Assembly: GCA_031380885.1 (NCBI GenBank)
Contig: JANMXL010000064.1
Span: forward strand, 5,842-69,841
From: Burkholderiales bacterium
GTDB lineage: Bacteria; Pseudomonadota; Gammaproteobacteria; Burkholderiales; Burkholderiaceae_C
Length of the DNA stretch: 64,000 nt
Direction: 5' to 3'
Shown here: one piece after another, positions 13,661 to 45,270 of the stretch
Position numbering within the stretch: the first letter of the stretch is position 1
How the letters are laid out: every line of letters starts with the position of its first letter
Translations under genes and position numbers: made by a program
Notes under the pieces: generated by a model
What the model saw: the letters and a program-made list of their open reading frames with translations, nothing else
Database searches by the model: none
What the model was told of the DNA's origin: nothing

Positions 13661-13663
13661 TCG

Positions 13664-14095
13664 GTGCGCTTCGGCCTCGACACGAATCTGCTCGTCTCGG
13701 CCGTCATCGCCGCTGGGCTGCCGCGCCGGCTGGTTGATGGCGCCAAAGCAGGAGAGTTCGAGTTTTGCACGAGCGAGGGGCTGCTGGCGGAGTTGCTCGA
13801 CGTGCTTTCGCGCAGCAAGTTCGCTGCGCGGCTCAGCCAGGCCGGCCTCACTCAGCAGGGCATCGTCGATGACTTGCGGCGCATCGCCGTCATCGTGTCT
13901 CCGGCGGACACGCCCCGGGTCGTGCCCACCGATCCCGACGACGATCACGTCATCGCCGCAGCACTCGCCGGCGCCGCCGATCTCATCGCCTCGGGCGACA
14001 AGCGCGATCTGCTGCCGATGGGCAGTTTCAACGGCATCGCCATCGTGACGGCGCGTGAGGCAGTCAAGCGGTTGGAGGCGCGGCGCGAAGGCTGA
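13664..14095 (+). CDS. PIN-domain toxin
   Basis: 'GLDTNLLVSAV', 'DPDDDHVIAAAL' and 'IASGDKRDL' supply the acidic PIN residues. GTG start. Confidence 0.8.
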   Translation: MRFGLDTNLLVSAVIAAGLPRRLVDGAKAGEFEFCTSEGLLAELLDVLSRSKFAARLSQAGLTQQGIVDDLRRIAVIVSPADTPRVVPTDPDDDHVIAAALAGAADLIASGDKRDLLPMGSFNGIAIVTAREAVKRLEARREG

Positions 14096-16311: not shown

Positions 16312-16497
16312 CGGGTGCTCCTTCAATAGTGCCTCTGCGCAATGTGCGGGTCGGCGTGGTGAACACAAGAGGTGATTGTCTGCGGCCGCCGAACAGCTCG
16401 AAAAATCGGAAAAAACGCCCGATCGCTCTCACAATCGCGCTGCCGTTACCGAACGCTGCATCCTGCGGCTTTCGCTTCGGCCTGGGAGCCGCGCTCG

Positions 16498-18713: not shown

Positions 18714-18727
18714 GGCACAACGTTTGC
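18714..18727 (+). promoter_or_regulatory. putative sigma-54 promoter core GGCACaacgtTTGC, upstream of the L,D-transpeptidase gene
   Basis: Canonical GGCAC-N5-TTGC, 36 nt from the annotated TTG start. Back-to-back with the 18669 site. Confidence 0.55.
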
Positions 18728-20706: not shown

Positions 20707-21987
20707 TCACTGATTCGTCGGCAACTTCGATCGGCGCTGCTTGTATGCACGCATCAGCGGCGTGGCTGACACACCGTGCAACACGATCGACAGCGCCACG
20801 CAGGCCAGCGTGGCCGAGGTGAGTGTTGTCGCGAGTGGACCGGACACACCGTGCTCCAGTGCGAACACCAGGTAGAACAGCGAGCCGATGCCGCGGATGC
20901 CGAACCAGCCGACCAGCCGGCGTTGGGCCTGCGGCATGTCGGTGCGGCGCACCACCGCCATCACCGACGCAGGTCGCACCCCAATCAGCAGCAACAGCGC
21001 GAAGCCCAGTTCGCGCCAACCGACGCCCACGCTGGCGAGCGCAGCGCCCACCGCCAGCACCAACGCCGCTTCGATCAAGCGTTCAATGCGCCCGCCGAAG
21101 GCATGCAATCGTTCGGTCAGGCGATCACCGGCTGATCCCGCTGGTGCGTCGCGCAGCGGCAGCAACAGGGTGGTGCCGGCTGCGAAGGCGACGATGAAAC
21201 TCGACGCGTTCAATGCGCGTGCCAGGCCGTATGACAGCACCACCACACCGACGTAGATGAACTCGTCGCGCAGCACGCGGTCGCCGTGCAGCAGAAGGCG
21301 TTTGAGCGCCAGCCCGATCAGCCAGCCCAACGCGCTCCCGACCACCGCACCGCCCGCGATGGGCCATGTGAAATCCGCCCACCACCAACGCGCGCCGCCT
21401 TCGCCCAGGCCATGCAAACCGAGCAGGCCGAGTGCCAGCATGACGCCCGGCAGCGCACCGCCGTCGTTCATGCCACCTTCTGCGGTCAGCGACAAACGCA
21501 CCGCATCGCGGTCTTCGCTGGATTCGATCTGCACATCGGACGCGAGCACGGGGTCGGTCGGCGCCACCACGCTGGCCAGCAGCAGCGCGGCGGGCCAGGG
21601 CAGGCCCAGCACCAGATGAGCGGCCAGCATCGCCAGCACGATCGTCACCACCATGCCGGGCCCGGCCAGCAGCAGGGCGACGCGCCATGCCTTGAAGGTC
21701 GGTGGCAGCGCCAGGCGCAACCCCACGGCAAAGAGTGACACCAGCACCGCCAGTTCGGTGACGAAAACGCCTGACGCTGCATGCTGCGTCAGCGTCTCGA
21801 TCCCCGGCCCGCCCAGCCACGTGGCGCCTGCCCAGCCGACCACCATGTAGATCAATGCTGGCGACATGGGCCACGGTCTGACGCTTCGCTCTGACAGCGC
21901 CAGCAGAAGCAGCACGCCGCCCAGCAGCAACAGCGCAGCGGTCAGCACTGGGCGTCCTCCGAATTGACGGGGCTGGCAGGGCCGCAA
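20707..21987 (-). CDS. cation:proton antiporter (CPA1-like Na+/H+ exchanger family)
   Basis: 426 aa, polytopic. 42 nt downstream of the hybrid kinase, so probably co-transcribed. Confidence 0.8.
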   Translation of the reverse strand: MRPCQPRQFGGRPVLTAALLLLGGVLLLLALSERSVRPWPMSPALIYMVVGWAGATWLGGPGIETLTQHAASGVFVTELAVLVSLFAVGLRLALPPTFKAWRVALLLAGPGMVVTIVLAMLAAHLVLGLPWPAALLLASVVAPTDPVLASDVQIESSEDRDAVRLSLTAEGGMNDGGALPGVMLALGLLGLHGLGEGGARWWWADFTWPIAGGAVVGSALGWLIGLALKRLLLHGDRVLRDEFIYVGVVVLSYGLARALNASSFIVAFAAGTTLLLPLRDAPAGSAGDRLTERLHAFGGRIERLIEAALVLAVGAALASVGVGWRELGFALLLLIGVRPASVMAVVRRTDMPQAQRRLVGWFGIRGIGSLFYLVFALEHGVSGPLATTLTSATLACVALSIVLHGVSATPLMRAYKQRRSKLPTNQ

Positions 21988-22028
21988 AATGTCAACGTCG
22001 ACTGCAGCAGCATGTCTTGCAGCAGGCC

Positions 22029-23909
22029 TTACCGATGGGCTGCAACACCTTCCATCGCGTCGTGCAGCGCGATCACCAGCGCGCCCGGCGGGCAGGGTTT
22101 GGCAAGCACGACGAAAAATTCGTCGGCCGATGTCAGCGCGGCATAGCCGCTCAGCAGCACCACCGGCAGGTCGGGGCAGTAATCACGCAGCACGCGCGCC
22201 AAGCCCAGGCCGTCCATGCCGCCAGGCATCCTGATGTCCGACAGCACCACATCGAACGCGGGTTCGTCGGCGATCAGCCGCAGTGCGCCCTGCGAATCAG
22301 CGGCACGCCGCACCTCGCAGCCCAGCTTCCTCAACAGCACCGCGGTCATGTCGGCCAGGTCGTCGTTGTCCTCCACCAGCAGCAGTCGGGTGCCGTCGAT
22401 CGAAGGTGCCCCGCCATTGAGCGCCGCCGGGGCGACGATGGCAGCCGGTTCGTCGCGCGCTGGCAGCAGCAGCGACACCGTGGTGCCCAACCCCTCGGTG
22501 CTGGTCAGCCGCGCGGTGCCGCCGGCTTGCTTGCAGAAACCCAGCACCTGGGCCAGGCTGAGCCCGGTGCCCTGGCCGACTTCCTTGGTGGTGAAAAAAG
22601 GCTCGAACACCTGCCCGGCCACGTTGTCGTCAATGCCCAGGCCGTCATCGCTGATGGTGATCAGCACATAGTCGCCGGCCGGCAGGTCGGGCACCTCGTC
22701 GTCGTGCGCGCGGCGTGCCTGCAGGTTCAGGTGACCGCCCAGCGGCATCGCGTCGCGGGCGTTTAGCGTCAGGTTGGTCAGCGCCAGTTCGAGTTCGTTG
22801 GTGTCGATGGTGACGCGCGGCGTGTCAGGCGCCACGGCCACCGTGACCTCGATGCGCGCGCCCAGCACGGTCTGCATCAGGTCCTGCAACTCGGGCAGCG
22901 CGCGCGCCAGATCGACCGGCTGCGCACTGACCGGCTGCTGCGCGGCGAAGCGCAGCAACCGCTGCGTCAGTCGGCTGCCCACCGCCACCGCGCGCAGCGT
23001 CGCGGCCAGCGGCGCCTGCAACTCGGCGGCGCTGCTCTGACGCTGCATCAGGTGGGCGCTGTTGCTGATCACGCCGAGCAGGTTGTTGAAGTCGTGCGCC
23101 ACGCCGCCGGTCAGCCGACCGAGCGCCTCGATGTGCTGGCTGCGTGAGATGCGCTGTTCGGCCTCGCGGGTGCGCGTGACGGCTTCGGCGACCCGGCGTT
23201 CGAGTTCGCTGCGGGAGTGCCTCAGCGCGTCGGCAGCGGTGGTCAGCGCTGTGGCCACCTCATCGTACTCGGCGATGCCGGTGCTGTGTCCTGTCACTGG
23301 CTCACCCCCCTGCATGCCGCTCGCAGCGCGCTGGAGTGCATGCACCGGCTCAACAATTCGGCGCGCCGCCCACAACGCGCCGAACACCGCGACCCCCAGC
23401 AACAGCAGCGAACCCAGCACCACCTTCTGCACCGCAGGCGGCATGGCAGCAACCAGCGTCGGCTGCGGCAGCGCACTGACCAGCGTCCAGCCGCTCACCG
23501 TGGTGTGGAGGTAGGCGCTCATCGCCCGGCCGTCCGCCCCGGTGGCCTCGAATGCCAGCTCGCGGCCAGGGGCCAGCTGTTGCCGCACCTCGGGCGTCAA
23601 GCGGGGCGCGGCGTTGGCGAGCCCCCCGGGTTGCACCACCACGATCTCGCCGCCCGGCGCCATCACCTGAACCACCCAATCCGGTGGCAGGCCTTGCCGG
23701 GCGATCAACCGCTGCAACTCGGCGGGGCGCTGCGGGGTCGCCAGGTCGATCGCCGTCGCCAGCGCACGGGTGGTCTCGCTCAGCTGGCGATCGAGTGCCT
23801 GTCGCTCCGCGTGGTAGGTCTGGTTGATGATCCAAAGCGCCGCCACCACGCCCGGCACCAGCACCGACAGCACGAGCAGCAACAGGCGGGAGCGGATGGA
23901 AACGGGCAT
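22029..23909 (-). CDS. hybrid sensor histidine kinase/response regulator
   Basis: Two TM segments with a periplasmic loop, H-box 'AHDFNNLL', ATPase 'GTGLSLA', C-terminal REC 'LLVEDNDD...DIRMPGGMDG'. Confidence 0.9.
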   Translation of the reverse strand: MPVSIRSRLLLLVLSVLVPGVVAALWIINQTYHAERQALDRQLSETTRALATAIDLATPQRPAELQRLIARQGLPPDWVVQVMAPGGEIVVVQPGGLANAAPRLTPEVRQQLAPGRELAFEATGADGRAMSAYLHTTVSGWTLVSALPQPTLVAAMPPAVQKVVLGSLLLLGVAVFGALWAARRIVEPVHALQRAASGMQGGEPVTGHSTGIAEYDEVATALTTAADALRHSRSELERRVAEAVTRTREAEQRISRSQHIEALGRLTGGVAHDFNNLLGVISNSAHLMQRQSSAAELQAPLAATLRAVAVGSRLTQRLLRFAAQQPVSAQPVDLARALPELQDLMQTVLGARIEVTVAVAPDTPRVTIDTNELELALTNLTLNARDAMPLGGHLNLQARRAHDDEVPDLPAGDYVLITISDDGLGIDDNVAGQVFEPFFTTKEVGQGTGLSLAQVLGFCKQAGGTARLTSTEGLGTTVSLLLPARDEPAAIVAPAALNGGAPSIDGTRLLLVEDNDDLADMTAVLLRKLGCEVRRAADSQGALRLIADEPAFDVVLSDIRMPGGMDGLGLARVLRDYCPDLPVVLLSGYAALTSADEFFVVLAKPCPPGALVIALHDAMEGVAAHR

Positions 23910-24008
23910 CGCAACGGTGTCGGAAGTGAATCAATTCGGCATGCGAGCCGTGTCGGCTCGCATGGCGCCCTCTGCAGTCATCGCAAGTCGCATCGGACCC
24001 CGACGATG

Positions 24009-24022
24009 GCAATTGTCGTTCC
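24009..24022 (-). promoter_or_regulatory. possible sigma-54-type core GGAACgacaaTTGC (minus strand), upstream of the hybrid kinase
   Basis: Correct spacing with a GGAAC -24 variant. A 10-bp-stem hairpin (23940..23964) lies in the would-be leader, which weakens the call. Confidence 0.3.
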
Positions 24023-24066
24023 CGGCCTGCACGCCGGTGCAGCGCGTGCAGGTCTTTCTCGTGGGG

Positions 24067-24954
24067 TCAGCGTGCAGCGAGGCGCCCTTCGGCATCGGAG
24101 AACAGCACCTCGACCCGGCGGTTGCGCTGCCGCCCGGCTGCACTGCCGTTGTCGGCCACCGGATTGGCCTCGCCCCAGGCACGCACCTCGATGCGCCCGG
24201 CCGCGACACCGCCGCTCATCAGCTCGCGCTGGAAGGCCTGGGCACGGCGCTGTGACAGCTGCAGGTTCATCTCATCGCTGCCCACGCTGTCGGTGAAGCC
24301 TTCAATCAGCACCCGGCGCTCGGGGTGATGGGTCAGCACCTGCACCAGCTGCGCGACGCTGCGCTGCGCGCCCGGTAGCAGGGTGGATTTGCCGGTGTCG
24401 AACAGCACATCACCCAGCGTCACCACCATGCCACGGTCGGTTTTTTGGGCCTTCAGGTCGGCCAGATCGCGCTCCAGCCCCTCGGCACGACCGGCTTGTT
24501 GCAAAGCGAGCATGGCCGCGGCATCAGCTTGCTGTTTCGACATCTGTGCATCGGCTTGCGCGGCACGGGCATCGGCGGTTGCCATGTCGGCCTCCTGGGT
24601 GCGGGCCTGCAGCCTCACCTTTTCGCGCTCGGCAGTGAACTGCTGAACGCGCTCGTCGGACTGCGCCTGCATGCCGACCGCCATCGCGATCTCGGCGCGC
24701 TGGCGCGCCAGGTAGGCGAGGTGGCGTGTCTGATCGACATCGCGGTCGGCGGCCCAGGCCGTCTCGGCGCGGGTCAGCGCCTGCTGCGCGTTTTGCAGCT
24801 CGACCGCGCCGCTGCGCGCGACGTAGGTGTTGCTGCGCGCCTGCTCCAGCGAACTGCGCGCGGCAGCAATGTCGGGGTTCAGTTCGGGGGTGGTCTGGCA
24901 GGCGGCGAGTGCCATCACGGTGGCGGTGGCGATCAGGGTGCGGGTGGTGTTCAT
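24067..24954 (-). CDS. OmpA-family lipoprotein with N-terminal DUF4398-like coiled coil
   Basis: Lipobox 'MALAAC', helical N-terminal half, C-terminal OmpA domain 'NRRVEVLF'. Confidence 0.85.
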   Translation of the reverse strand: MNTTRTLIATATVMALAACQTTPELNPDIAAARSSLEQARSNTYVARSGAVELQNAQQALTRAETAWAADRDVDQTRHLAYLARQRAEIAMAVGMQAQSDERVQQFTAEREKVRLQARTQEADMATADARAAQADAQMSKQQADAAAMLALQQAGRAEGLERDLADLKAQKTDRGMVVTLGDVLFDTGKSTLLPGAQRSVAQLVQVLTHHPERRVLIEGFTDSVGSDEMNLQLSQRRAQAFQRELMSGGVAAGRIEVRAWGEANPVADNGSAAGRQRNRRVEVLFSDAEGRLAAR

Positions 24955-24981
24955 GGTGTGCTCCGGAAGTGCATGCAGGGG

Positions 24982-25368
24982 TCAGGGCGTCGGGCGGGGG
25001 GCTTGCTTGGCGGCCGCACGGTTGAGCTCGTCGCGCAGCGTTTGCAGGCCGGTCTCCAGCTCGGTGACCGCGAGCCGCGAGCGTTCAGAGCCTGCCTTGG
25101 CGCGAGCCAGCTGCGCATCGACATCGGCTTGCTCGGCCATGCGCAGCGCGCCGCGGTCGTCGCCGGCAGCGGCCAGCGCGCGGGCTTTCTCCAGCTTGCT
25201 GCGCGCTTCACTCAAGTTGACAGAGTCCAGTTCCGGCGCACCGGCCGAGCGGGCGGCTTCGACCGAGGCCGCACTGGCGGCGATCGAAGGCGCCGATGAC
25301 TCGGTGGTGCCGCAGCCGGCCGCAACGGCGCAAGCGCCCAACAGCGCGGTGAGGGTGAATGGGTTCAT
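24982..25368 (-). CDS. DUF4398-like lipoprotein
   Basis: 'MNPFTLTALLGACAVAAGCG' lipobox, then a helical Ala/Arg/Glu-rich domain similar to the N-terminus of the downstream OmpA protein. Confidence 0.7.
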   Translation of the reverse strand: MNPFTLTALLGACAVAAGCGTTESSAPSIAASAASVEAARSAGAPELDSVNLSEARSKLEKARALAAAGDDRGALRMAEQADVDAQLARAKAGSERSRLAVTELETGLQTLRDELNRAAAKQAPRPTP

Positions 25369-25539: not shown

Positions 25540-25902
25540 ATGAAAGACGAACCGATCTACAACACCAGCCAGCCGTTCATGAAGCTGGTCCAGTCCAACA
25601 TGGAACTGGTCAACCAGATGATGCCGAAACCGGAAGCGCTGTCGAACTCGATTGCCACTGGTGGCAAGTCGCTGTATCAACCCTCCGCGTTGACGAGCCC
25701 CTTCAACCAGGGCGCAGCATTTGGTCAGATGATGCAATCGATGATCAGGAACTACGCCGTCTTTCTGACCGAGTGGGGTCAGTGCTCGATGAACGCCATC
25801 GTGCACAGCCAGCAGGCTTTCCAGCACAGCGCCCAGCAGGCCGCCGACATGGCAATCGAAGCAAGCCGCAGCGCCGAAAAAATCAGAGCCAAAGCGGCTT
25901 GA
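25540..25902 (+). CDS. hypothetical protein, possibly phasin-like
   Basis: 'PFMKLVQSNMELVNQMM' resembles phasin N-termini. This is a weak family call. Confidence 0.5.
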   Translation: MKDEPIYNTSQPFMKLVQSNMELVNQMMPKPEALSNSIATGGKSLYQPSALTSPFNQGAAFGQMMQSMIRNYAVFLTEWGQCSMNAIVHSQQAFQHSAQQAADMAIEASRSAEKIRAKAA

Positions 25903-25947: not shown

Positions 25948-27609
25948 TCAAGTCGTCTCGACAGGCCCTGGCGGGGCCGCCGGTTGGCCGGTCACCGGCA
26001 GCGTGATCGTGAACTCGCTGCCCAGGCCCTGACCTTCGCTGTGCGCCCTGACACTGCCACCGTGGGCGGCCACAAGTTCGCGCACCACCGTCAGGCCCAG
26101 GCCGAGGCCGTTGCCGTTGAAGGCGGCGGCATGCGTGTCCTGCACGAACGGGTCGAAGATGTGCGGCAGCGTGCGTGGGCTGATGCCGATGCCGTTGTCG
26201 CGCACCGTCAGCACCACGCTGTCGCCCACAGTCGCCATCGTCAGCGTGATGACACCTGCAGAAGGCGTGTACTTCGAGGCGTTGTCGAGCAGGTTGCGCA
26301 GCACCTGGGCCAGCCGCATCGGGTCGCCGTTGAGCAACAGTTCAGCCGTGGGCATATGAATCACGAGCTGCTGCCGTCGCTTGTCCATTGCCGGACGGCA
26401 GCTGTCGACCACCTCTTCGATCAGCGCGTGCATGTCCAGCTGCTGCCGCTCCAGCCGCAGCTTGCCGCCGTTGATGCGCGACACATCCAGCAGGTCGCCG
26501 ACCAGCCGCGACAGCTGCGCCACCTGCCGCTCGATGACGGCATTCATTCGCGGCAACATCGGATCGCTGCTGCCGCTGCGGCCCATCACTGCCGACGCGG
26601 TGCGGATCGACATCAGCGGCGATCGCAATTCGTGCACCGCCCGCACCATGTTTTCGGTGTGCCGTTGCAGCGCACGTTCGGCGCTGGTCTGCGAGGCCTT
26701 GGCATCAAGGGCGCTCAGCAGCAGGTGCTCGTTGGCCTCCTGCAACTGCGCCTGCCGTTGGACTTGGTCGCCGGGTGTGTTCGGTGTCGACACCAGCGTT
26801 CGACGCATCGAATCGGGTGGTGCGGCCGGCGACTCCAGTTCGGCAAAGTTGCTCCGGTCAAAGAACATGCGGTGGCTCTGGTCGAGCCGCTTTGCGCGGT
26901 ACATCGCGGCATCGGCCCGGTCGATCAGCGTGCACGCCTCATCGCCGTCGTCGGGGAAGAGGCTGATGCCGATGCTCGCCTTCAGGCTCAGCACTCGCTC
27001 GCCGATGCGGGTGGGCCGCGCCAGCGCCAGGTTGATCTTGTCGGCGATGGCCGCCGCGTCGCTGGCCTGCGCCACCTCGTCCAGCAGGATCAGGAATTCG
27101 TCGCCGCCGTGCCGACTGACGGTGTCCGATGCCCGTACCGACTCCACCATGCAGCGGGCGGCCAGCTTCAGCACCTCGTCACCCAGGGCGTGCCCGAAGG
27201 TGTCGTTGATCTGCTTGAAATGGTCGAGGTCGAGAAACAGCAGCGCCATGCGGGCGTTGCGGCGCCGCTTGCCGGCAATCGCCTGCGTGAAGCGGTCGAG
27301 AAACAGCATGCGGTTGGGCAGCTGCGTCAGCGCGTCGAGCTCGGCGACGCGCGAGACTTCCATCAACGCGCGCATCGCGCCTTCGGCATCGGTCTTCGCC
27401 TGCAGCACCGAGATCACCAGCCGCTCATTGGCCTCTAGCAGGTCAGCCACATGCGTCGACTTCAGCTGTGCCGACGCCGCGACGACACAGGCCTGCAATT
27501 GCGCCAGCACCCCCCGCGTGTGGTCTACCTCGGCACGCAACTCGGTGAGCTCACGTGTGGCGCGAGCGATTGCAGCGTCTGCGTCGTCGGGAGGGGCCGG
27601 CGTGTTCAC
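25948..27609 (-). CDS. GGDEF diguanylate cyclase fused to a histidine kinase (coiled coil, GGDEF, HisKA, HATPase)
   Basis: 'RHGGDEFLILL' preceded by 'RASD' at I-site spacing. H-box 'VHELRSPL'. ATPase 'GNGLGLGL'. GTG 27609 chosen because it is 22 nt after the kaiC stop; the longer ORF would overlap kaiC by 176 nt. Confidence 0.8.
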   Translation of the reverse strand: MNTPAPPDDADAAIARATRELTELRAEVDHTRGVLAQLQACVVAASAQLKSTHVADLLEANERLVISVLQAKTDAEGAMRALMEVSRVAELDALTQLPNRMLFLDRFTQAIAGKRRRNARMALLFLDLDHFKQINDTFGHALGDEVLKLAARCMVESVRASDTVSRHGGDEFLILLDEVAQASDAAAIADKINLALARPTRIGERVLSLKASIGISLFPDDGDEACTLIDRADAAMYRAKRLDQSHRMFFDRSNFAELESPAAPPDSMRRTLVSTPNTPGDQVQRQAQLQEANEHLLLSALDAKASQTSAERALQRHTENMVRAVHELRSPLMSIRTASAVMGRSGSSDPMLPRMNAVIERQVAQLSRLVGDLLDVSRINGGKLRLERQQLDMHALIEEVVDSCRPAMDKRRQQLVIHMPTAELLLNGDPMRLAQVLRNLLDNASKYTPSAGVITLTMATVGDSVVLTVRDNGIGISPRTLPHIFDPFVQDTHAAAFNGNGLGLGLTVVRELVAAHGGSVRAHSEGQGLGSEFTITLPVTGQPAAPPGPVETT

Positions 27610-27631
27610 GTTTTGAATCCGGCCAGATGTC

Positions 27632-29170
27632 TCAGCGCGCTGGCTCTGGTGCGGTGGGCACGGGGTCGGCGCTGTGGGGCGCTGGTGAGCCCTTGCGGGT
27701 CGGGCGGCCGCCCAGCAGGCCTTCGTGATCGGGCAGCATGCTGCCGACGACGATGCCTCTGTCATCGATGACGAATTCGCGCAACTCGTCGGAGTGCGCG
27801 CTGGCACGCACCTTGACCACCGCCATCACGCGGCGCAGGCGGCTCGCGACCTCGATGTAGCGCTGCACGATGATCGCGTCGGTCATGAACGCCGTGCCAT
27901 ACGGGCTGAAGCGCAGGTCGGTGTAGCGGTCTTCCAGCTCCGAGGTCATCAGCACCGTGACGCCGACATCCGTCATGGCCTTGACCAGACGCGACAGCGA
28001 TTCACGGAAGTCTTCGCGGAAGGTCGGCGCCACCGACAGCTCGAAGCCCGACAGCGAGTCGATGACGACACGGGTGGCGCCGCGGCGGTGGATCTCTTCG
28101 AGCAGCAGCACGATGATCTCGTCGATCGACAGATCAGGCGCGCGGCTGTCGACCACGCCAACCAGACCGGCCTCGACCAGATCGGCAACCACCCGATTGC
28201 GCGAGCGATTCGGGTGCTGCTCGAACACCGCGATCACGCCAGCCTCGCCGAGGCGTGCGCCTTCGGCCAGGAAGGCGGCTGCCAGGATGCTCTTGCCCGA
28301 CCCCGATGGCCCGGCCACCAGCAGTGAGTAGCCGCGCGGCAAGCCGCCGCCCAGCATGTCGTCGAGCGCGGGCACGCCGGTCAGTGCTCGCTGTGGCGTG
28401 AAGTGCGCCGACCCGTTGGCGACGCCATTCGCTGTCATGGTGGCGCCAGCAATTGACCGCGCGGCGGGTGGCGCGAAGATGCGCACGCCGCCGCTGTCGA
28501 TGCGAAAGGTGTGCAGGCCCGGCAGAGTGGGCTGGCCGCGCATTTTCATGATTTCCATCTTGCGAACGACCGAGTTGCGCAGCGCGCTTTGGCGCAGCCA
28601 GATCAGCCCGTCGGCGACGGTGAACACCGGGTTCGCGTCGGTCTCGACGAAGTACTCGCCGAGCAGGAAGGTGGTGGCCTGCCAGCTCGTCATCAGCATG
28701 CCGAGCTGTTGCACGAACTGCTGCAGGTTGTTGTGCGGGCTCGGCACCTGGCTGGCCGATTCGCTGGCCAGGATCACCGAGCGGAACGAGTCGACGAACA
28801 CCAGCGCCGGGCTATGGGTGGTGACTTCCTCCACGATGCGGCGCAGCACGCGGTCGAGGTCGCCGACCATCGCTTCCTCGGACAGGTTGATGAAGCGGAT
28901 CGAGGTGTTGACCACTTCGTTGTCGAAAAAGCCGAATTGCTGTTGGTAACGCAGCATCTTCAGCGGCGGCTCGCCGAGCACGGTGAAGTACAGCGCCGGG
29001 CGCTCGGGCGTGGCCAGCGCGAACATGATCTGGTGCGCCAGCGTGGTCTTGCCGCAGCCGGGTTGGCCCGCGATCAGGTTGAACGAGAACTCGGGCAGCC
29101 CTCCGCCCAACACTTCGTCCAACCCCGGCACGCCGGTGGCCAGGCGGTTGATGGTCACTTTGGCACTCAT
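27632..29170 (-). CDS. kaiC: KaiC-family double-domain RecA-like ATPase
   Basis: Two KaiC domains with Walker A 'GQPGCGKTT' and 'GPSGSGKS'. 'GVPGLDEVLGGGLP' and 'GVPALDDMLGGGLP' repeats. 512 aa. Confidence 0.9.
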   Translation of the reverse strand: MSAKVTINRLATGVPGLDEVLGGGLPEFSFNLIAGQPGCGKTTLAHQIMFALATPERPALYFTVLGEPPLKMLRYQQQFGFFDNEVVNTSIRFINLSEEAMVGDLDRVLRRIVEEVTTHSPALVFVDSFRSVILASESASQVPSPHNNLQQFVQQLGMLMTSWQATTFLLGEYFVETDANPVFTVADGLIWLRQSALRNSVVRKMEIMKMRGQPTLPGLHTFRIDSGGVRIFAPPAARSIAGATMTANGVANGSAHFTPQRALTGVPALDDMLGGGLPRGYSLLVAGPSGSGKSILAAAFLAEGARLGEAGVIAVFEQHPNRSRNRVVADLVEAGLVGVVDSRAPDLSIDEIIVLLLEEIHRRGATRVVIDSLSGFELSVAPTFREDFRESLSRLVKAMTDVGVTVLMTSELEDRYTDLRFSPYGTAFMTDAIIVQRYIEVASRLRRVMAVVKVRASAHSDELREFVIDDRGIVVGSMLPDHEGLLGGRPTRKGSPAPHSADPVPTAPEPAR

Positions 29171-29601
29171 GTCGTCAAGTCCTTTGCGGTGGGGCCGCTC
29201 GAAGCAGCGGCCCACACGGAACGCAGCAATCGTTCAGTAAGAGATGGTCCGACCATGCTGACCAGCAGGTCGTGGAAAGTTTCGAAAAGCAGGGCCGCGC
29301 CGGCTGTGGCCTCCAAATGCGATTGCTGCTTGAACACCGAATTCAGGTCGGACAGATTGACCGATGCCAGCGCGTGGTCATGCACCTCCATCAGCCACGG
29401 ATGGCCCTGCGCCGCCACATACACACTGCGCTTGTAGAGGGCCGCGAAACCGCGCGGGCCAACGATGGGTGTCAAGGCCGCATCGATCTCCTGCCATGCC
29501 ACAACGACAGCATCAGCGAGCCGGCCGGCATCTGCATAGGCGCTCACGCGGTGTGCTAAAGGGGGGGCGAGCGAGCCACTCGCAGGGCTTTCCATAGACA
29601 T
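29167..29601 (-). CDS. hypothetical protein, first gene of the kaiC operon
   Basis: ATGA overlap with the kaiC start. No family recognised and not KaiA/KaiB-like. The start may be 29595, 29601 or 29706. Confidence 0.55.
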   Translation of the reverse strand: MSMESPASGSLAPPLAHRVSAYADAGRLADAVVVAWQEIDAALTPIVGPRGFAALYKRSVYVAAQGHPWLMEVHDHALASVNLSDLNSVFKQQSHLEATAGAALLFETFHDLLVSMVGPSLTERLLRSVWAAASSGPTAKDLTT

Positions 29602-29780
29602 GTCCAGTGAACGTTCCTCATGGAGAGAGTGATGGTATGCCCCGTTTGTGGCAATCGCGTTCCACAACTCGATCAGGCGGCCGCTGACGCCGGGCGGCCG
29701 CTTCATCGAGGCTGTCGCTCAAGGCCGTGCTGGCGTGACATGGGAGTGGCTTGGTAGAGAGGGTGCATTGCGCAATCTTG

Positions 29781-29794
29781 GCAAGCGGTGTGCC
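29781..29794 (-). promoter_or_regulatory. putative sigma-54 promoter core GGCACaccgcTTGC (minus strand), upstream of the kaiC operon
   Basis: Canonical GGCAC-N5-TTGC. 75 nt from ATG 29706, or 180 nt from 29601. Confidence 0.55.
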
Positions 29795-29798
29795 CAAT

Positions 29799-29814
29799 GG
29801 ACACCGCGGTGTCC
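29799..29814. promoter_or_regulatory. perfect 16-bp palindrome GGACACCGCGGTGTCC
   Basis: Read directly. Lies 5 bp upstream of the -24 element of the kaiC-operon promoter and 130 bp upstream of the rpoN promoter. Confidence 0.4.
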
Positions 29815-29943
29815 TGACCGGCAAGGCGTGAACGCGCCTGATCGGCAAAATTTACCGTAATGCAGGCCGCATCGGTAAGGCGACCCGAGTGGCCCGGCGA
29901 GCGGGCCTGTCGCTTGCCCGGGCAGTTGCGCCTGGCGCGGCAC

Positions 29944-29957
29944 GGCACGGGGGTTGC
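29944..29957 (+). promoter_or_regulatory. putative sigma-54 promoter core GGCACgggggTTGC, upstream of the rpoN copy
   Basis: Canonical spacing. 37 nt upstream of GTG 29994, with AGGAG at 29981-29985. Confidence 0.55.
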
Positions 29958-29993: not shown

Positions 29994-31457
29994 GTGGTGA
30001 CCCTGAATTTTCAAACCGATACCCGTCAAGTGCAAGCCCTGTCGCCGCGTTTCCAGCATGCGGTGCGGCTGCTGCAGCTGTCGTCGATGGACTTTGCTGC
30101 CACGGTGCGCGACGTGCTGGGCCAGAACCCGTTTCTGGAGATCGAGGACGGCGTGGCGGAGGGCGAGGGCGCCGACGTCGATGCGTTGGACGGTGACAGT
30201 GCTGAGGCCTTGGCTTCAGCTGCGATGCCGTTCGACGACCACGCGATGTCGTCGGACGCGGAGGGCCTTGCCGACGACCGCGGCGACGATCGCGACCTGT
30301 GGCTGGTCGAAGGCTCGTCGTCGCAGCGGCAGGCGGGCGATGGCGACGTGTCGGCGCTGGACCTGATGGCGGTTGATCTTCCGCTGAATGCGCACCTGAA
30401 TGCCCAGCTCGATCTGCAACCGTTGGCGACCCGCGAGCTGTGGATGGCGCGCGCCATCGTCGAATCGCTCGACGACGACGGCTACCTGCGCACCCCGCTG
30501 GCCGAGCTGTGCGAACTGGTACCGCTGAATCCACCGGTGGACGCCGCCGAGATGCAAACGGCCTTGCAGCGCGTGCAGGCGTTGGACCCGGCGGGCGTGG
30601 GCGCTCGCAGCGTGGCCGAATGCCTCACGCTGCAGCTGCCGGCGATCGAATGCCCGCTGCTGCGCGGGCTGGCTGAGCGCATCGTGACCGAGCACCTGAC
30701 GCTGCTGGCGGCGCGCGATGTGAACGCGCTGGCGCGTGCGCTCGGCGAACCGGCGTTGCGGGTGCAGCAGGCGTGCGATCGCATCCGCCGCTTCGATCCG
30801 CGGCCTGGCTGGCGTTTCAGCTCGATTCGCACCGCCTATGTGGTGCCCGATGTGGTGGTGAAAAAGGTGCGCGGCGAATGGCGGGTGCAGCTGAACCCGG
30901 CGGTGATCCCGCGGGTGCGCCTGAACCAGGTTTATGCCGCGCTGTTCAAGCGCCACCGCAGCACCGCCAACGCCGACATGGCCGGCCACCTGCAGGAAGC
31001 GCGCTGGACGGTGAAGAACGTCGAGCAACGCTTCTCGACCATCCTCGACGTGGCCGAAGCGATCGTCAAGCGGCAGCGTCACTTCCTGGAATTCGGGCCG
31101 ATGGCGATGAAGCCGCTGGGCCTGAAGGAGATCGCCGATGAACTCGGCATCCACGAGTCCACCGTTTCGCGGGTCACCAACAACAAATTTATCGCCACCC
31201 CCAGCGGTGTGTTCGAACTGAAGCATTTTTTCTCGCGGGTGATGGTCACGGCCAACGGCAGCGCCTGTTCGGGCACGGCCATCCGCGGGTTGCTGAAAGA
31301 CTTGATCGCCGCCGAGGCACCCGATGCGCCGCTGTCCGATGCCGAAATCACCCGGCAGCTGGCCCAGCAGGGGCTGGTGGTGGCGCGGCGCACCGTCACC
31401 AAATACCGTCAGCTGCTGCGCATCGACGCGGTGGGACGGCGCCGCCGCCAGGCCTGA
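29994..31457 (+). CDS. rpoN: RNA polymerase sigma-54 factor outside the canonical rpoN context (likely paralog)
   Basis: Region I 'RLLQLSSMDF', acidic region II, C-terminal RpoN box 'ARRTVTKYR'. No lptB/hpf/ptsN neighbours. Confidence 0.9.
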   Translation: MVTLNFQTDTRQVQALSPRFQHAVRLLQLSSMDFAATVRDVLGQNPFLEIEDGVAEGEGADVDALDGDSAEALASAAMPFDDHAMSSDAEGLADDRGDDRDLWLVEGSSSQRQAGDGDVSALDLMAVDLPLNAHLNAQLDLQPLATRELWMARAIVESLDDDGYLRTPLAELCELVPLNPPVDAAEMQTALQRVQALDPAGVGARSVAECLTLQLPAIECPLLRGLAERIVTEHLTLLAARDVNALARALGEPALRVQQACDRIRRFDPRPGWRFSSIRTAYVVPDVVVKKVRGEWRVQLNPAVIPRVRLNQVYAALFKRHRSTANADMAGHLQEARWTVKNVEQRFSTILDVAEAIVKRQRHFLEFGPMAMKPLGLKEIADELGIHESTVSRVTNNKFIATPSGVFELKHFFSRVMVTANGSACSGTAIRGLLKDLIAAEAPDAPLSDAEITRQLAQQGLVVARRTVTKYRQLLRIDAVGRRRRQA

Positions 31458-31479: not shown

Positions 31480-31493
31480 GGCACGTCGCTTGC
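31480..31493 (+). promoter_or_regulatory. putative sigma-54 promoter core GGCACgtcgcTTGC, upstream of the 31576-35336 operon
   Basis: Canonical GGCAC-N5-TTGC, 83 nt upstream of ATG 31576. Confidence 0.55.
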
Positions 31494-33972: not shown

Positions 33973-34721
33973 CCGCTCGACGTGCCATCGAAGGCGTCGG
34001 CTGCACCGAATCGGTGTGGCGCGAGTGGCTGGATGCCCTGGACGTGCCGACGCTGGCGTGGAACGACTGGCTGCCCGCAACGGCACGGCTGGTGGTGGTT
34101 GCGCCGCACCCCGACGACGAGGTGCTGGCCTGCGGCGCGCTGCTGGCGATGCATGCGGCGCGCGGTGGTGAGTGCTGCGTCGTGGCGGTCACTGACGGCG
34201 AAGGCAGCCACCCCGGATCGAAGCGGTGGACCCCCCAGCAGCTGACAGCTGTTCGCCGCGCCGAAAGAGCCGAAGGCCTGCTGCGGCTCGGCCTGGGTGG
34301 CGCGTCGCTGCATGGCCTGGGGCTGCCTGACGGTGCGGTGCAGACACAGGCCGACGTGCTCCGATTGCGCCTGACCGACTTGTTGCGGCCTGCCGATGTG
34401 GTGGTCACCACCTGGCCGCTCGACGGCCACCCCGACCACGATGCCTGCGGTGCCGCCGCCGTGCAGACCTGCGCTGCCGTGGGGTGCCGCTTGCTCACTG
34501 CGCCGGTGTGGATGTGGCATTGGGCCGCGCCCGGGGATGCGCGTGTGCCCTGGCATCGGCTGCGCGCGCTGCAAGTCGATTCGGCAGCGCTGCAGCGCAA
34601 GCAGGCGGCACTGGAGGCGCATGTGTCGCAGCGCACCGCGCGGGAAGGCGGGCAGGGCCCGGTGCTCGGCGCTGAAATCCTGGCCCGGGCGGCACGCGAG
34701 CGCGAATACTTTTTCGTTTGA
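33960..34721 (+). CDS. PIG-L/LmbE-family deacetylase
   Basis: 'VVAPHPDDEVLACG' Zn motif and 'HPDHDA'. Confidence 0.85.
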   Translation: MGALTARRAIEGVGCTESVWREWLDALDVPTLAWNDWLPATARLVVVAPHPDDEVLACGALLAMHAARGGECCVVAVTDGEGSHPGSKRWTPQQLTAVRRAERAEGLLRLGLGGASLHGLGLPDGAVQTQADVLRLRLTDLLRPADVVVTTWPLDGHPDHDACGAAAVQTCAAVGCRLLTAPVWMWHWAAPGDARVPWHRLRALQVDSAALQRKQAALEAHVSQRTAREGGQGPVLGAEILARAAREREYFFV

Positions 34722-34736
34722 ACCGAGGCCGCCACG

Positions 34737-35336
34737 ATGTCGCACACACCTGCCTATTTCGACTCGATGTTCCATGCCGACAGCGATCCGTGGAAGTTCC
34801 GCACGCGCTGGTACGAGGTGCGCAAACGCGCACTCACCCTGGCGTGCTTGCCGAAGTCTCACTACGACGCGGCCTACGAGCCGGGTTGCGCCAACGGCGA
34901 GCTGTCGGCCGCGTTGTCCGAGCGTTGCTCGCGCCTGCTCGTTTCCGATGGGTCGGCCCCGGCGGTGCAGTTGGCCCGACAACGCCTGGCGGGGCTTGCG
35001 CATGTTGAAGTGCGGCAGGCCTGGGTGCCGACGCAATGGCCAGACGAGCAGTTCGACCTGATCGTCATCAGCGAGCTGGCCTACTTTCTGACCGCCGGCG
35101 CACTGGACGCCATGATCGGAAAAATCAAGGCGTCCCTGAGTTCGGGCGGCACCGTGTTGGCGTGCCATTGGCGACGGCGCAGCGACGACTGCGAATTCAG
35201 CGGTGACCGGCTGCACCGCCAGCTGGGCAGCGGGCTCGGTTTGCCGCACCTGAGCCGCTTGATCGAGCCCGATGTGCGCGTCGATGTGTGGAGCGCCGAC
35301 CCGCGCTCGGTGGCGCAGCAGGAGGGTTTCGCGTGA
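34737..35336 (+). CDS. class I SAM-dependent methyltransferase (NodS-like)
   Basis: 'YFDSMFHADSDPWKFRTRWYEVRKR' N-terminus and 'EPGCANGELS' motif I. Confidence 0.85.
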   Translation: MSHTPAYFDSMFHADSDPWKFRTRWYEVRKRALTLACLPKSHYDAAYEPGCANGELSAALSERCSRLLVSDGSAPAVQLARQRLAGLAHVEVRQAWVPTQWPDEQFDLIVISELAYFLTAGALDAMIGKIKASLSSGGTVLACHWRRRSDDCEFSGDRLHRQLGSGLGLPHLSRLIEPDVRVDVWSADPRSVAQQEGFA

Positions 35337-35345
35337 TGCGCCCGG

Positions 35346-36095
35346 CTACAGGCTCAGCAGCTGTGACAGCAACGCGTTGACCTGAGATTGCGCGCCGAGC
35401 CGAAAGCGCGCGCAGCTGCTTGTGCCCACCGGCGCGATGCGCACGCTGACGCAGCCCGCACCGGCGCGGGCGAACGCCGGCTCGTCGTTCACGTCATCGC
35501 CAACGATCAAGGCGTTCGGTGCGCCGCATTCGTGCATCAGCTGCACCAGCGCGTCACCCTTGTTCGGCGCATTTGACGGGGTGATGTTCAGCACACTGTG
35601 GCCGTGTGCCGCGGCGATGCCGGGCCCGTGCGCTGCGGTCAGGCTGTCGAGCCAGCGGCGCACCGAGGCGACGTCTGCCGATCGCCGGTAGTGCCATGCC
35701 AGTGATGCGCCCTTGTCTTCGACATCGACGCCGCGCTCATCGAACACCCGGGCCCACTGCCGCGCCTGCTCGCGACAGCCGGCGAGCGCGTGGTGCGGTG
35801 CCGGGAATGAGGTGCTGCCGGCCCGCTCGGCACCGTGATTGCCCACCAGGAAGCGCGGCTCGAAGCCGAGGCGAAGCCGGGCGTCGGCCACCGCCCGACC
35901 GGTGATCACTGCCACCGGCCAGCGCCGCGCCAGCGCTTGCAGCCGTGCGGCGGTGATGCGCGAGACCGCCGCATCGCTCGGCCGCATGACGAGCGGTGCC
36001 AGTGTGCCGTCGAGGTCGAAGGCAAGCAACGCATGCCTGTGGCTGAGTCGCCGCAAGGCCCGCAGCCCTTGCGGTGAGAAGAGCGATGCGGTCAT
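35346..36095 (-). CDS. otsB: trehalose-phosphatase
   Basis: 'LAFDLDGTLAP' HAD motif and 'VGDDVNDEPAF'. ATGA overlap with otsA. Confidence 0.85.
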   Translation of the reverse strand: MTASLFSPQGLRALRRLSHRHALLAFDLDGTLAPLVMRPSDAAVSRITAARLQALARRWPVAVITGRAVADARLRLGFEPRFLVGNHGAERAGSTSFPAPHHALAGCREQARQWARVFDERGVDVEDKGASLAWHYRRSADVASVRRWLDSLTAAHGPGIAAAHGHSVLNITPSNAPNKGDALVQLMHECGAPNALIVGDDVNDEPAFARAGAGCVSVRIAPVGTSSCARFRLGAQSQVNALLSQLLSL

Positions 36096-37681
36096 GTCCC
36101 CGTCATGGTCTGCGCATGGCGGTGGTGCGGCGCGTGGTGAGCCAAGCTGGTCGGGTGGTGCGATGCATCGAGCGGATGCTGCGCCGTGGCCTCCTGCAGC
36201 AGGCTTGCCGCCCAGTGCTCTGCACTGTGCCGCTGCACCGTGGCGCGCAGGGCGAGCATCCGCGCGTGCTGCTCCGCGGGCAGCATGGTCAGCCCCTGGT
36301 GCAGGGCCTCGGCCACCTGCGCCAAGTGGTAAGGATTCACACACAGCGCGTCGATCAACTCGGCCGCCGCACCGGCGTGTTCACTGAGCACCAGCACCCC
36401 TTGTTTGTCGTCACGTGCGGCGATGAATTCCTTGCAGACCAGGTTCATGCCGTCGTGCAGCGGGGTGACCAGGCAGACGTCAGCGGCACGGTAGGCGGCT
36501 GTCACGGCGACGCGGTCATGGCAGGTGTCCAGCAGCAACACCGGTGTCCACCCCGGCCGCACATAGCGCGCGTTGATGCGTGCGACTTCGTCGTGCACCT
36601 CCGCCTGGAACGCGGAATACGCGGGCAGTGTCGACCGGGTGGGTGCGGCGATCTGCACGAAGCGCAGTCGGCCTACCCATTCGGGATGCCTGACCAGCAG
36701 CTGCTCGACCGCACGCAGCCGCTCGATCAGGCCTTTGGTGTAGTCGAAACGGTCGATGCCGACGATCAGCTTGCCGCCCACCGGCACCGACCAGCGCTGC
36801 GCAGCTTCGCGCCGGCTGTGCGCAACGGTCGGCATCGCCCCCACCTGTGCTGCAGTCGGCCAGGCGACCGACACCGCACAGTCGCGCACCTCGGTGAGCG
36901 AGCCCGCACGTTCCACTGGCCCGCTGACATCGGCGTCTAGCTGCAAACCGGCGCGCTGCACGCTGGCGTTGAAGTGATGCCTGTGAGTGGCCGTCTGGAA
37001 AGCCAGCGTGTCGCAGCCCAGCAATCCGGCAATCAGCTCACTCAGCCACGGGCAGATTTCCATTTGTTCCGGGTGTCCCCACGGGATGTGCCAGAAGCCC
37101 AGAATCCGCGCCTGCGGCAGGCGCTGCCGCACCAGCGCAGGGACCAGCGCGAGCTGGTAGTCGTGGACCCAGACGATCGGGTTGGCTCGCTGCGCTTCGT
37201 GCACCACCGCATCGGCGAAGCGCTGGTTCACGCGGCGATAGACAGCCCAGTCACTGTCGGTGAACGTCGGGCGCACATGAACCATGTGACACAAGGGCCA
37301 CAACCCGCTGTTGGCGGCGCCGTCGCGGTAGCCGCGCTGCTCGTCGGCGCTGAGCCACAGATAACGCAACCGATAGCCGCCGAATAGATGCCCCGCGGTG
37401 GTGACTTGCCAGGTGTCGTCGGCGTCGGTGAATTGGCGGTCGGCATTGCCGCTGCCGTGGGCAATCCAGGTCCGGCTGCCGGCACCTCTTTGCATCACCG
37501 GCTCGATGGCGCTGACCAGACCGCTGGCCGGCTGCACCGCCTGAACGCCGTCACCTGCACGTTGAAGCGACCACGGTGCGCGGTCGGAGACGACGATCAG
37601 TTGCCGGTCGGGCAGCGTCGTGCCGGGCAAATGTCGCCATGGCGAACTGGCGGCTCGGGTCGTCTCGGCAAAGCGCGTCAT
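36092..37681 (-). CDS. otsA: alpha,alpha-trehalose-phosphate synthase (GT20)
   Basis: '[12 protein letters not shown]' and 'GMNLVCKEF' motifs. Start moved to 'MTRFAETT'. Confidence 0.9.
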
Positions 37682-38012
37682 GGGTAGTGCATGCGGTGGT
37701 GGAGGGCGGCCAATTCGGGCAATCGAGATACCCGCGCCCATCACCCAGCGGGCTGGCATCGGAATTGCCGCCTTTTCTGATTGAGCACCCGACGTTGGCG
37801 CGATTGCGCGACAGCCTTTGCGCAGATCTGCCCCAGAGGAATGTGGTGCACGCTGCCTCTGCGGGTTTGCTCACGGCGTTCGGCCGTGAACCCGTGGTGA
37901 CGGACATGGGCGCTCTGCAAGAGCCTGCAGCGTCGGCAGCGCCGTTCGCCATGCCCGCACAGGCGCCACACGCCATGGGGTGCGCCGAGAACGTTGGTGC
38001 GTTGGTAGCCCG

Positions 38013-45080: not shown

Positions 45081-45156
45081 GGGTTGTTAGCTCAGTTGGT
45101 AGAGCAGCGGACTTTTAATCCGTAGGTCGTGGGTTCGAGTCCCGCACAACCCACCA
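45081..45156 (+). tRNA. tRNA-Lys (anticodon UUU)
   Basis: 76 nt. Acceptor GGGTTGT/ACAACCC, D arm GCTCAGTTGGTAGAGC, anticodon loop CT-TTT-AA, T arm GTGGGTTCGAGTCCCGC, encoded CCA. Confidence 0.95.
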
Positions 45157-45194: not shown

Positions 45195-45270
45195 GGGCTC
45201 TTAGCTCAGTTGGTAGAGCAGCGGACTCTTAATCCGTAGGTCGAGTGTTCGAGTCACTCAGGGCCCACCA
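45195..45270 (+). tRNA. tRNA-Lys (anticodon CUU)
   Basis: 76 nt. Acceptor GGGCTCT/AGGGCCC, anticodon loop CT-CTT-AA, T arm GAGTGTTCGAGTCACTC, encoded CCA. Confidence 0.95.

Follow-up and report, generated by a model that had tools for sequence, protein, structure and literature searches.

In the cyanobacterial KaiABC-SasA/CikA clock, KaiC, a two-domain, hexameric-type ATPase of the RecA superfamily, is encoded close to genes of small proteins and has a histidine kinase (HK) as its output. The B-loop of KaiC is the binding site for KaiB and SasA. KaiC homologs are also widespread in non-photosynthetic bacteria. The contexts of kaiC catalogued in 2011 comprised kaiBC, kaiC with a specific kinase, and a heterogeneous "black group" with poor phosphorylation sites (including "AF"), located near genes of HKs, receiver (REC) proteins or GGDEF/EAL proteins (PMC3164672). 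The "dark-blue group" of the same study is exemplified by the KaiB-less kaiC-HK operon of Ramlibacter tataouinensis (Rta_04330/Rta_04340), in which KaiC has two phosphorylatable sites (SY/TY) and the kinase has a KaiB/SasA-like N-terminal domain (PMC3164672). Terrettaz, Cabete, Geiser, Valentini and Gonzalez described a group II of KaiC homologs, with no phosphorylatable residues at positions 431/432 and with two Thr nearby; only groups I and III were characterized by these authors, and group II was merely noted as HK-associated (bioRxiv 10.1101/2022.01.26.477890). Group II is the least understood set, and it covers plant-associated Xanthomonas and Pseudomonas as well as common soil Burkholderiales. 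Here we analyze an operon with a KaiC homolog of this kind, found in a 64,000-nucleotide (nt) stretch of DNA from a Burkholderiales bacterium (66.7% G+C), which is referred to below as the window. We estimate at roughly 60% the probability that this operon encodes a cytoplasmic signalling module centred on a group II KaiC-like ATPase, in which a small partner protein and the nucleotide state of the ATPase steer an output enzyme, and in which there is no circadian oscillator.

The operon consists of three co-directional genes on the minus strand. The first one, a small open reading frame (ORF) at 29167..29706, encodes 179 amino acids (aa) from the ATG at 29706; two alternative in-frame ATGs, at 29601 and 29595, would yield 145 and 143 aa, and the core shared with the rest of the family, about 143 aa, corresponds to 29601-29167. 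Its TGA codon (29169-29167) overlaps the ATG (29170-29168) of the second gene, 27632..29170, which encodes a double-domain KaiC-like ATPase of 512 aa. Exactly 22 nt separate the stop codon of the latter from the GTG start codon at 27609 of the third gene (25948..27609), whose product of 553 aa is a soluble enzyme with GGDEF, HisKA and HATPase_c domains identified by Pfam. This packing, with the ATGA overlap and the 22-nt gap, had been described in the same terms in the original prediction, made from the DNA sequence with no database searches. The same trio of 179, 512 and 553 aa is present in public gene calls on two 100%-identical metagenome contigs in ENA, which carry a 100%-identical third protein (P0269).

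The product of the second gene contains two PF06745 KaiC domains (1.3e-65 in Pfam, with NCBIfam in agreement), and both its Walker A motifs, GQPGCGKT and GPSGSGKS, are intact, as had been noticed from the beginning. The scores against the NCBIfam KaiC equivalogs (PRK09302 / TIGR02655) are nonetheless below the cut-offs (200.9 vs 408 and 118.7 vs 546.25 bits), and in a phmmer comparison with solved KaiC chains, where the best match was 8zn5 (8e-49), only the C-terminal half of the protein aligned well. The functional sites were compared using phmmer alignments to KaiC chains in the PDB and a MAFFT alignment of 44 orthologs with KaiC of S. elongatus, the sequence of which was entered by hand and cross-checked against the PDB by phmmer in its CII part. 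The clock phosphorylation sites S431 and T432 read A and F, and T426 reads S; the pair of catalytic Glu residues reads EQ in CII and GE in CI; and, relative to this hand-entered S. elongatus sequence, seven residues are deleted at the position of the CI B-loop. These states of the phosphorylation sites, the Glu pairs and the B-loop are conserved across the 44 orthologs. As the original prediction had it, no clock partners are visible: tblastn found neither KaiA nor KaiB in the window and 140 related loci, a weak test since the queries were entered by hand, and no SasA-like thioredoxin domain was found.

Because the phosphorylation sites read A/F, the B-loop is deleted and the scores fall below the equivalog cut-offs, the protein is, judging from its sequence, KaiC-like and not a clock KaiC, so that the original "KaiC" assignment holds for the double-domain homology and fails for the clock identity. 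By its described features and by the taxa in which it occurs, it matches group II of Terrettaz et al.: it has two domains and AF-type sites with no phosphorylatable residue at 431/432, two Thr nearby, no KaiB, and, in most loci, an HK-containing gene downstream, and its orthologs in Xanthomonas, Lysobacter, Dyella, Rhodanobacter and Pseudomonas are 68-78% identical. The two Thr flank the A/F pair in the motif g-T-A-F-m-T-D, and none of the 44 orthologs has lost them or the Ser at the position of T426. In principle, such residues could serve a KaiB-less hourglass, in which the KaiC-like protein would autophosphorylate on the Thr of this motif, the small protein would set the balance between kinase and phosphatase, and the output enzyme would read the phospho-state. 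This possibility has been raised for group II (bioRxiv 10.1101/2022.01.26.477890), such a role has been proposed for KaiB-less KaiC-HK pairs (PMC3164672), and CII retains its Walker A motif, E318 and the arginine finger. On the other hand, the canonical sites are non-phosphorylatable, E319 is replaced by Q, and in Pseudomonas the phosphorylation of group I and III proteins tracked the age of the culture and not the time of day (bioRxiv 10.1101/2022.01.26.477890). The sequence holds nothing that would separate a timer from a switch, and we regard the hourglass as rather unlikely. In the module preferred here, the signal would be an ATPase or conformational state and not ordered phosphorylation of the clock type, since A and F occupy the positions of S431 and T432.

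The small protein had been singled out in the original prediction as belonging to no recognized family and as a candidate partner of KaiC. Searches of Pfam and NCBIfam gave no match at E<=0.1, PADLOC gave none either, and a profile search against PDB sequences retrieved only chorismate mutase (E=6). The AlphaFold2 model of the protein is confident and comprises five helices (pLDDT 79.8, pTM 0.74), and a Foldseek search with it against the PDB and BFVD yielded a best E-value above 2 and a TM-score of at most 0.37. KaiA-like, KaiB-like, globin-like and sigma/anti-sigma-like folds were considered and rejected, since none gave a Foldseek match; with no neighbour in either the structural or the PDB-profile search, the small protein is neither KaiA-like nor KaiB-like. 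We collected 202 close homologs, nearly all of 140-146 aa and all either unnamed or "hypothetical", and a profile search in a library clustered at 50% identity returned 3110 representatives at E<=1e-3 and 1628 at E<=1e-10. An alignment of 34 sequences contains 19 invariant columns, which cluster in LTPIxGxRGxAALYKRS and LVGPSLTERLLRSVW. Judging from this conservation and from the predicted fold, the protein is a member of a real, selected and large unannotated family. Ten longer members were examined for fusions, and because none of them has a Pfam domain, their extra length is probably due to miscalled starts. Among the homologs listed, none is a natural fusion of the small protein with KaiC. 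In the window protein, a 35-residue N-terminal extension (29602-29706, minus strand) precedes the family core, and it is conserved at the protein level in the closest clade only. Its consensus, MKxPPGVSxR..LW...AYHQ..EER, is shared by the window, two related loci (L003 and L004) and the proteins P0002-P0013, and both the extension and the sigma-54 promoter core described below sit on about 200 bp of DNA that has no counterpart in the loci L005-L007.

The association of this family with the KaiC-like gene was assessed from both sides. Scanning genomes with the small protein as the seed produced 58 loci, from Rhizobacter, Methylibium, Rubrivivax, Rhodoferax, Caballeronia, Rhodocyclales, Xanthomonas, Lysobacter, Dyella, Rhodanobacter, Pseudomonas and a metagenome-assembled genome of Gemmatimonadales; in about 55 of them the small gene is located directly upstream of a group II kaiC, whose product is 68-87% identical to that of the window. 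With the KaiC-like protein as the seed, a scan of metagenomes gave 80 loci, 77 of which had enough upstream DNA, and the small gene is directly upstream of the kaiC-like gene in all 77. The 4-nt ATGA overlap is kept in 39/57 of the genome loci and in 75/78 of the metagenome loci. In Lysobacter sp. A03 and Pseudomonas sp. UMAB-08 (L051 and L060) the pair is found between unrelated metabolic genes with no adjacent output gene, and since it stands alone there, we consider it the invariant core of the system. From gene order and the overlap, the small gene and the kaiC-like gene thus form an invariant, translationally coupled pair. Neither of the two outcomes named as refuting the original prediction was obtained, since the first gene matches no known family and the genes are strongly co-conserved, and the small protein is the best candidate for a KaiC partner. 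That the adjacency is incidental, with a small ORF that is spurious or unrelated and a sigma-54 match produced by chance, is highly improbable: the small ORF does have a lower G+C content at third codon positions (GC3), and a degenerate motif of 14 nt is expected about 1.5 times per window, but the family has thousands of members, is conserved in length, shares invariant residues and keeps one position, which refutes this explanation for the gene, and the sigma-54 core is found at the orthologous position in four diverged relatives. In one of the loci (L002, 8745-11553), apparent frameshifts break kaiC and the output gene up into several short gene calls; these frameshifts are likely to be assembly errors, and contigs of this sort would hide the trio from gene-based surveys.

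The output enzyme encoded by the third gene is composed, on the minus strand, of an N-terminal helical hairpin, which includes a short sequence element at 27441-27394, a GGDEF domain (27342-26884; PF00990, 6.6e-45), a second copy of the element at 26745-26695, located after a disordered linker, a HisKA domain (26637-26464) and a HATPase_c domain (26328-25990). We call this element the EANE box; it is a helix of about 20 residues with the consensus L-x-EANEQLV-x-x-AL-x-AQ. According to Pfam, there is no transmembrane, PAS, GAF, HAMP or receiver domain in the enzyme. The cyclase motifs read RHGGDEF and LDLDHFKQINDTFGH, and the RxxD I-site, RASD, lies five residues upstream of GGDEF; at the sequence level, both the cyclase active site and the I-site are intact, and synthesis of cyclic di-GMP (c-di-GMP) is predicted. 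The kinase boxes are also intact, with HELRSPL as the H box and LLDNASKY, DNGIGI, IFDPF and GNGLGLGL as the N, G1, F and G2 boxes. A kinase/diguanylate-cyclase fusion had been recognized originally, and its domains are confirmed, but the fusion is only one of three architectures found in the gene after kaiC. All three share the EANE boxes: box1-GGDEF-box2-HisKA-HATPase (about 540 aa, the type of the window), box1-box2-HisKA-HATPase (about 340 aa, in 35+ loci) and box1-GGDEF-box2 (about 270-370 aa). The automatic choice of the third ORF returned shadow frames in L027, L033, L043, L050, L051 and L060, of which L051 and L060 were re-examined by hand. Database homologs of the fused architecture are abundant, and they are either named "diguanylate cyclase" or not named at all.

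The EANE motif occurs 184 times in 1.3 Mb of six-frame translation, almost always in the gene after kaiC, and the only two occurrences in the 64-kb window are both in the third gene. In the AlphaFold2 model of the output enzyme (pLDDT 72, pTM 0.39) the packing of the domains is unreliable because of the low pTM. The model has an N-terminal hairpin of helices 12-48 and 51-88, of which the latter contains box 1 and enters the GGDEF domain; a disordered linker at 252-282 is followed by a single long helix, 281-344, with box 2 at its start, and this helix contains the phospho-accepting H326. Each catalytic domain would thus be fed by a stalk helix that bears a box, since box 1 leads to the GGDEF domain and box 2 to the DHp helix. 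This arrangement resembles diguanylate cyclases and kinases regulated by stalks or signalling helices, in having a long helix before each catalytic domain and canonical GGDEF, I-site and DHp/CA motifs; it differs from them in that the only recognizable input is the EANE-box hairpin together with the co-encoded pair of the KaiC-like and small proteins. The insertion of a GGDEF domain between the input helices and the DHp region of one polypeptide is unusual, and we know of no characterized example. Additional proteins with the EANEQLV box (REANEQLVISALNAHTAAEL) have their genes in the vicinity of the trio, though not immediately behind kaiC, at about 704 (+) in L069, 6937 (-) in L088, 3605 (-) in L126 and 1679 (+) in L134 and L139, and they may be further clients of the same module.

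The two catalytic halves of the fused enzyme differ in their conservation. GGDEF is kept in 42/43 fused orthologs and RxxD in 41/43, while 14 of the 43 have N, D, Q, S, K or E in place of the His of the H box, namely those in L001, L010, L019, L021, L044, L046, L056, L058, L063, L066, L089, L099, L111 and L135. The N, G1 and G2 boxes involved in ATP binding are mostly kept in these His-less orthologs, which indicates, on the basis of the alignment, a repeated conversion of the output kinase to a pseudo-kinase. With GGDEF retained so consistently while the His is lost, the cyclase looks like the conserved output of the fused architecture. We have also considered that the HK is the true output, which would act in a SasA-like phosphorelay to a distant regulator (e.g. 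of the NtrC type) with sigma-54 feedback, the GGDEF domain being an insert that senses c-di-GMP or GTP. The box1-box2-HisKA-HATPase form found in 35+ loci looks ancestral, the window protein keeps the His, N, G1, F and G2 boxes together with the I-site, and in the Rhizobacter-like clade synteny with the operon extends to an NtrC-type regulator and a hybrid kinase. However, besides the loss of His in 14/43 of the fused orthologs, of which 42/43 keep GGDEF, the GGDEF-only outputs have dropped the kinase altogether, and the operon has no response regulator, which makes this explanation quite unlikely.

If the small protein is a partner of the KaiC-like ATPase, it would bind the hexamer in a ratio of about 1:1 and tune its cycle of ATP binding and hydrolysis, taking over, despite its unrelated fold, the regulatory role of KaiA and KaiB of the clock. 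The dimeric output enzyme would then sense the nucleotide state of the complex through its EANE-box stalks, and a shift in the register of the coiled coil would turn the synthesis of c-di-GMP on or off; in a lineage that retains the His, such as that of the window, autophosphorylation of the kinase, directed toward a response regulator, would be switched as well. Transfer of the state of the KaiC-like protein to the output enzyme has a precedent in the group I and III KaiC homologs of Pseudomonas, which bind the adjacent kinases via the N-terminal domain of the kinase (bioRxiv 10.1101/2022.01.26.477890). A more specific version of this proposal, that the small protein is the missing regulatory subunit of a KaiC with neither KaiB nor phosphorylation sites, and that together they form a self-contained, nucleotide-driven timer or switch whose state passes directly into c-di-GMP synthesis through the EANEQLV box, a docking or stalk element not recognized before, we offer only tentatively.

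Alternatively, the small protein might be an adaptor or inhibitor acting on the EANE-box hairpin of the output enzyme, or a sensor of a small ligand, and KaiC might remodel it as an unfoldase. Hexamers of the RecA/KaiC type are able to remodel their partners, the order of the small gene, kaiC and the output gene is fixed, and the small protein is modelled as a compact helical bundle, which could fit against the hairpin helices of the output enzyme. Yet the stop/start overlap joins the small gene to kaiC and not to the output gene, the pair persists with no adjacent output gene in L051 and L060, and the small protein accompanies HK-only, GGDEF-only and fused outputs alike. We therefore consider it unlikely that the output enzyme, and not the KaiC-like ATPase, is the target of the small protein.

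Several observations weigh against the proposed module of small partner, KaiC-like ATPase and output enzyme. The mechanistic steps are inferred from gene order, conservation and models of monomers. Activity of the KaiC-like ATPase is itself presumptive, since CI keeps one of the two catalytic Glu residues and CII has EQ. The loss of the phospho-accepting His in 14/43 fused orthologs implies that the kinase half may be structural rather than an output, and the operon encodes no response regulator. The metagenome loci are phylogenetically redundant, so that 77/77 does not amount to 77 independent events and the counts overstate them; the taxonomic spread of the genome scan is free of this weakness. 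Shine-Dalgarno sequences are weak before both candidate starts of the small ORF and before the third gene, and GC3 of the small gene is 0.70, compared with 0.85 in its neighbours. Finally, the only enhancer-binding protein in the window, discussed below, is 8 kb away and is tied to the operon by synteny alone.

Upstream of the operon lies a sigma-54 -24/-12 core, GGCACACCGCTTGC (29781..29794, minus strand), which has the GG-N10-GC spacing and reads gGGCAC-ACCGC-TTGC vs the consensus TGGCAC-N5-TTGC. The motif GGCAC-N5-TTGC occurs seven times in the window (at 4063, 18714, 29781, 29944, 31480, 35829 and 40520), compared with 1.5 expected, and only 1 of 100 shuffled sequences reaches this number. 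The occurrence at 40520, within a coding region, is probably due to chance, and the one at 18714-18727 (+) is located about 150 nt upstream of a 182-aa gene of no named family. The core of the operon is identical or nearly identical at the orthologous position in L003, L004, L061 and L062, amid diverged intergenic DNA. L005-L007 lack it, as do more than 50 other loci in the DNA ahead of the small gene. Sigma-54 control as a property of the module was rejected for this reason, and since the core is missing from all more distant loci, it is clade-specific: the sequence conservation supports sigma-54 control that is real but confined to a small Rhizobacter-like clade. The canonical core that had been reported originally is thus conserved in four relatives, but it is not general to the module. 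The original prediction also pointed to a perfect 16-bp palindrome next to the core. It is present (GGACACCGCGGTGTCC, 29799..29814, 4 nt upstream of the core), but its conservation is limited: L003 retains only the inner 12 bp, L004 has a degenerate version, and L061 and L062 lack it. With no conservation beyond one relative, the palindrome was dropped as an operator; it is probably lineage-specific, and a function for it is not supported.

A complete gene of a sigma-54 (RpoN) paralog, overlooked by the original prediction, is divergent from the operon (29994..31457, plus strand; 487 aa, with strong matches to the Sigma54_AID, CBD and DBD domains). It is found next to the trio in L003-L007, L061, L062, L141 and L142 only, and its context is non-canonical, with no lptB, hpf or ptsN neighbours. 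A sigma-54 core, GGCACGGGGGTTGC (29944..29957, +), is located 37 nt upstream of its start, and another core of this type (31480-31493, +) just downstream of the gene; both are conserved at orthologous positions in all seven loci with the adjacent rpoN paralog that were checked. This suggests an autoregulated regulon of a second sigma-54. The downstream core precedes a 196-aa gene of no named family and a cluster of GT2, ACAD-like, PIG-L and NodS-methyltransferase genes. Between the two divergent cores, a block TTACCGAT-N14-TTACGGTAAAT-N-TTGCCGAT (29841..29878) is the only other intergenic stretch strictly conserved in the window, L003, L004, L061 and L062; L005-L007 retain part of it. The block is upstream of both cores, at a distance of 44-84 nt from that of the operon and 66-106 nt from that of rpoN, and is a candidate for a shared enhancer, i.e. 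activator-binding, site, to judge from its conservation and position; the half-site TTRCCGAT elsewhere in the window formed no informative pattern. In the Rhizobacter-like clade, the sigma-54 promoter of the operon would thus share the conserved upstream block with the divergent rpoN paralog, itself putatively sigma-54-dependent. If the operon is transcribed with sigma-54, an enhancer-binding protein would be needed, and the only candidate activator in the window would be an NtrC-type response regulator (16372-17946, +), in which a REC domain is followed by a sigma-54 AAA+ domain with GSFTGA and by HTH_8. Its syntenic counterpart in L006 shares 79% identity with it, the identical ENA contigs also carry it, and in relatives it is syntenic together with a hybrid HK-REC protein (22029-23909) and an OmpA/DUF4398 gene; the synteny of the regulator and the hybrid kinase is confined to the close clade.

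How much of this is new can be judged by comparison with the systems described above. KaiC-like ATPases coupled to outputs of the two-component type outside Cyanobacteria are already known, and group II is already named; the original remark that KaiC homologs adjoin two-component kinases in such bacteria is borne out by the HK-adjacent kaiC genes in PMC3164672. The wiring of KaiC to c-di-GMP had been called undescribed, but because kaiC genes next to HK or GGDEF/EAL genes have been catalogued (PMC3164672), the link is not conceptually new; what we did not find in the searchable literature are the small partner family, the EANE-box element, the GGDEF-inserted kinase with the cyclase as its conserved output, and the clade-specific linkage to sigma-54 and the rpoN paralog. 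All of these are additions to the published description of group II, the text of which (bioRxiv 10.1101/2022.01.26.477890) contains zero occurrences of GGDEF, diguanylate, c-di-GMP and RpoN and does not mention an upstream small gene. With the cyanobacterial system the operon shares the type of ATPase, an adjacent gene of a small protein and a histidine kinase in the output, but it has no KaiA or KaiB, S431/T432 and one Glu per half are lost, the B-loop is shorter by 7 residues, the partner is all-helical and unrelated, and the kinase contains a GGDEF domain and lacks the thioredoxin-like N-terminal domain of SasA. Ramlibacter tataouinensis likewise has a betaproteobacterial kaiC that shares a transcript with the signalling gene downstream of it, and neither kaiA nor kaiB (PMC3164672), whereas the KaiC described here has the AF profile, an output with EANE boxes and an obligatory small gene upstream.

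The system offers several handles for experiments. An obligatorily coupled family with thousands of members and no annotation is a candidate regulator of the ATPase; the client enzymes can be recognized by the short and highly specific EANEQLV box, a possible docking or transmission element; and the c-di-GMP product can be assayed in a system that is found in cultivable, genetically tractable species. The cultivable carriers include Xanthomonas arboricola CFBP3123, X. campestris pv. asclepiadis NCPPB 4013, Caballeronia sp. dw_19, Rhodanobacter glycinis S10, Dyella ginsengisoli Gsoil3046 and Pseudomonas morbosilactucae MAFF 302030. Should the proposed coupling be true, it would tie an ATPase of the clock family to the control of biofilm and motility without a phospho-oscillator, and would illustrate the swapping of output domains on a fixed input stalk. 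Should the small protein be the missing subunit, this would be a third widespread wiring of KaiC, beside KaiABC-SasA and the KaiC-PAS-kinase type.

The neighbourhood of the operon includes, at 20707-25000, genes for a DUF4398 protein, a DUF4398-OmpA protein, the hybrid HK-REC protein, a Na+/H+ exchanger and a Transgly_assoc protein, and, at 34700-37900, genes for trehalose-6-phosphate synthase and phosphatase, while the neighbours of the trio on both sides in L002 are BON, Usp and hemerythrin genes. Such a neighbourhood suggests an osmotic or desiccation-stress setting, and in the clade of the window the position of the operon, beside a second rpoN and surrounded by genes for trehalose synthesis, OmpA and ion exchange, suggests a regulon for this type of stress. 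KaiC of P. putida, which belongs to group III, contributes to the resistance to osmotic and oxidative stress (bioRxiv 10.1101/2022.01.26.477890).

About 50 nt past the third gene there is a terminator-like hairpin with a T-run (25877..25899, minus strand; stem AGCCG/TGGCT, tail CTGATTTTTT), which matches the consensus only weakly. A convergent ORF of 120 aa (25540-25902, +), with no Pfam family, ends within this region; it has a 43%-identical homolog at the same position in L004 and is also called on the identical ENA contigs. An Rfam scan of the window revealed no leader RNA or c-di-GMP riboswitch, and its only gathering-level matches were two distant tRNA genes, at 45081-45153 and 45195-45267 (+). 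A reading of the locus as a defence system was dropped, as the PADLOC matches were local to the Walker A motifs. A PIN-domain protein encoded at 13661-14095 (+; PF13470, 3e-16) is probably the toxin of a toxin-antitoxin system and is unrelated to the operon.

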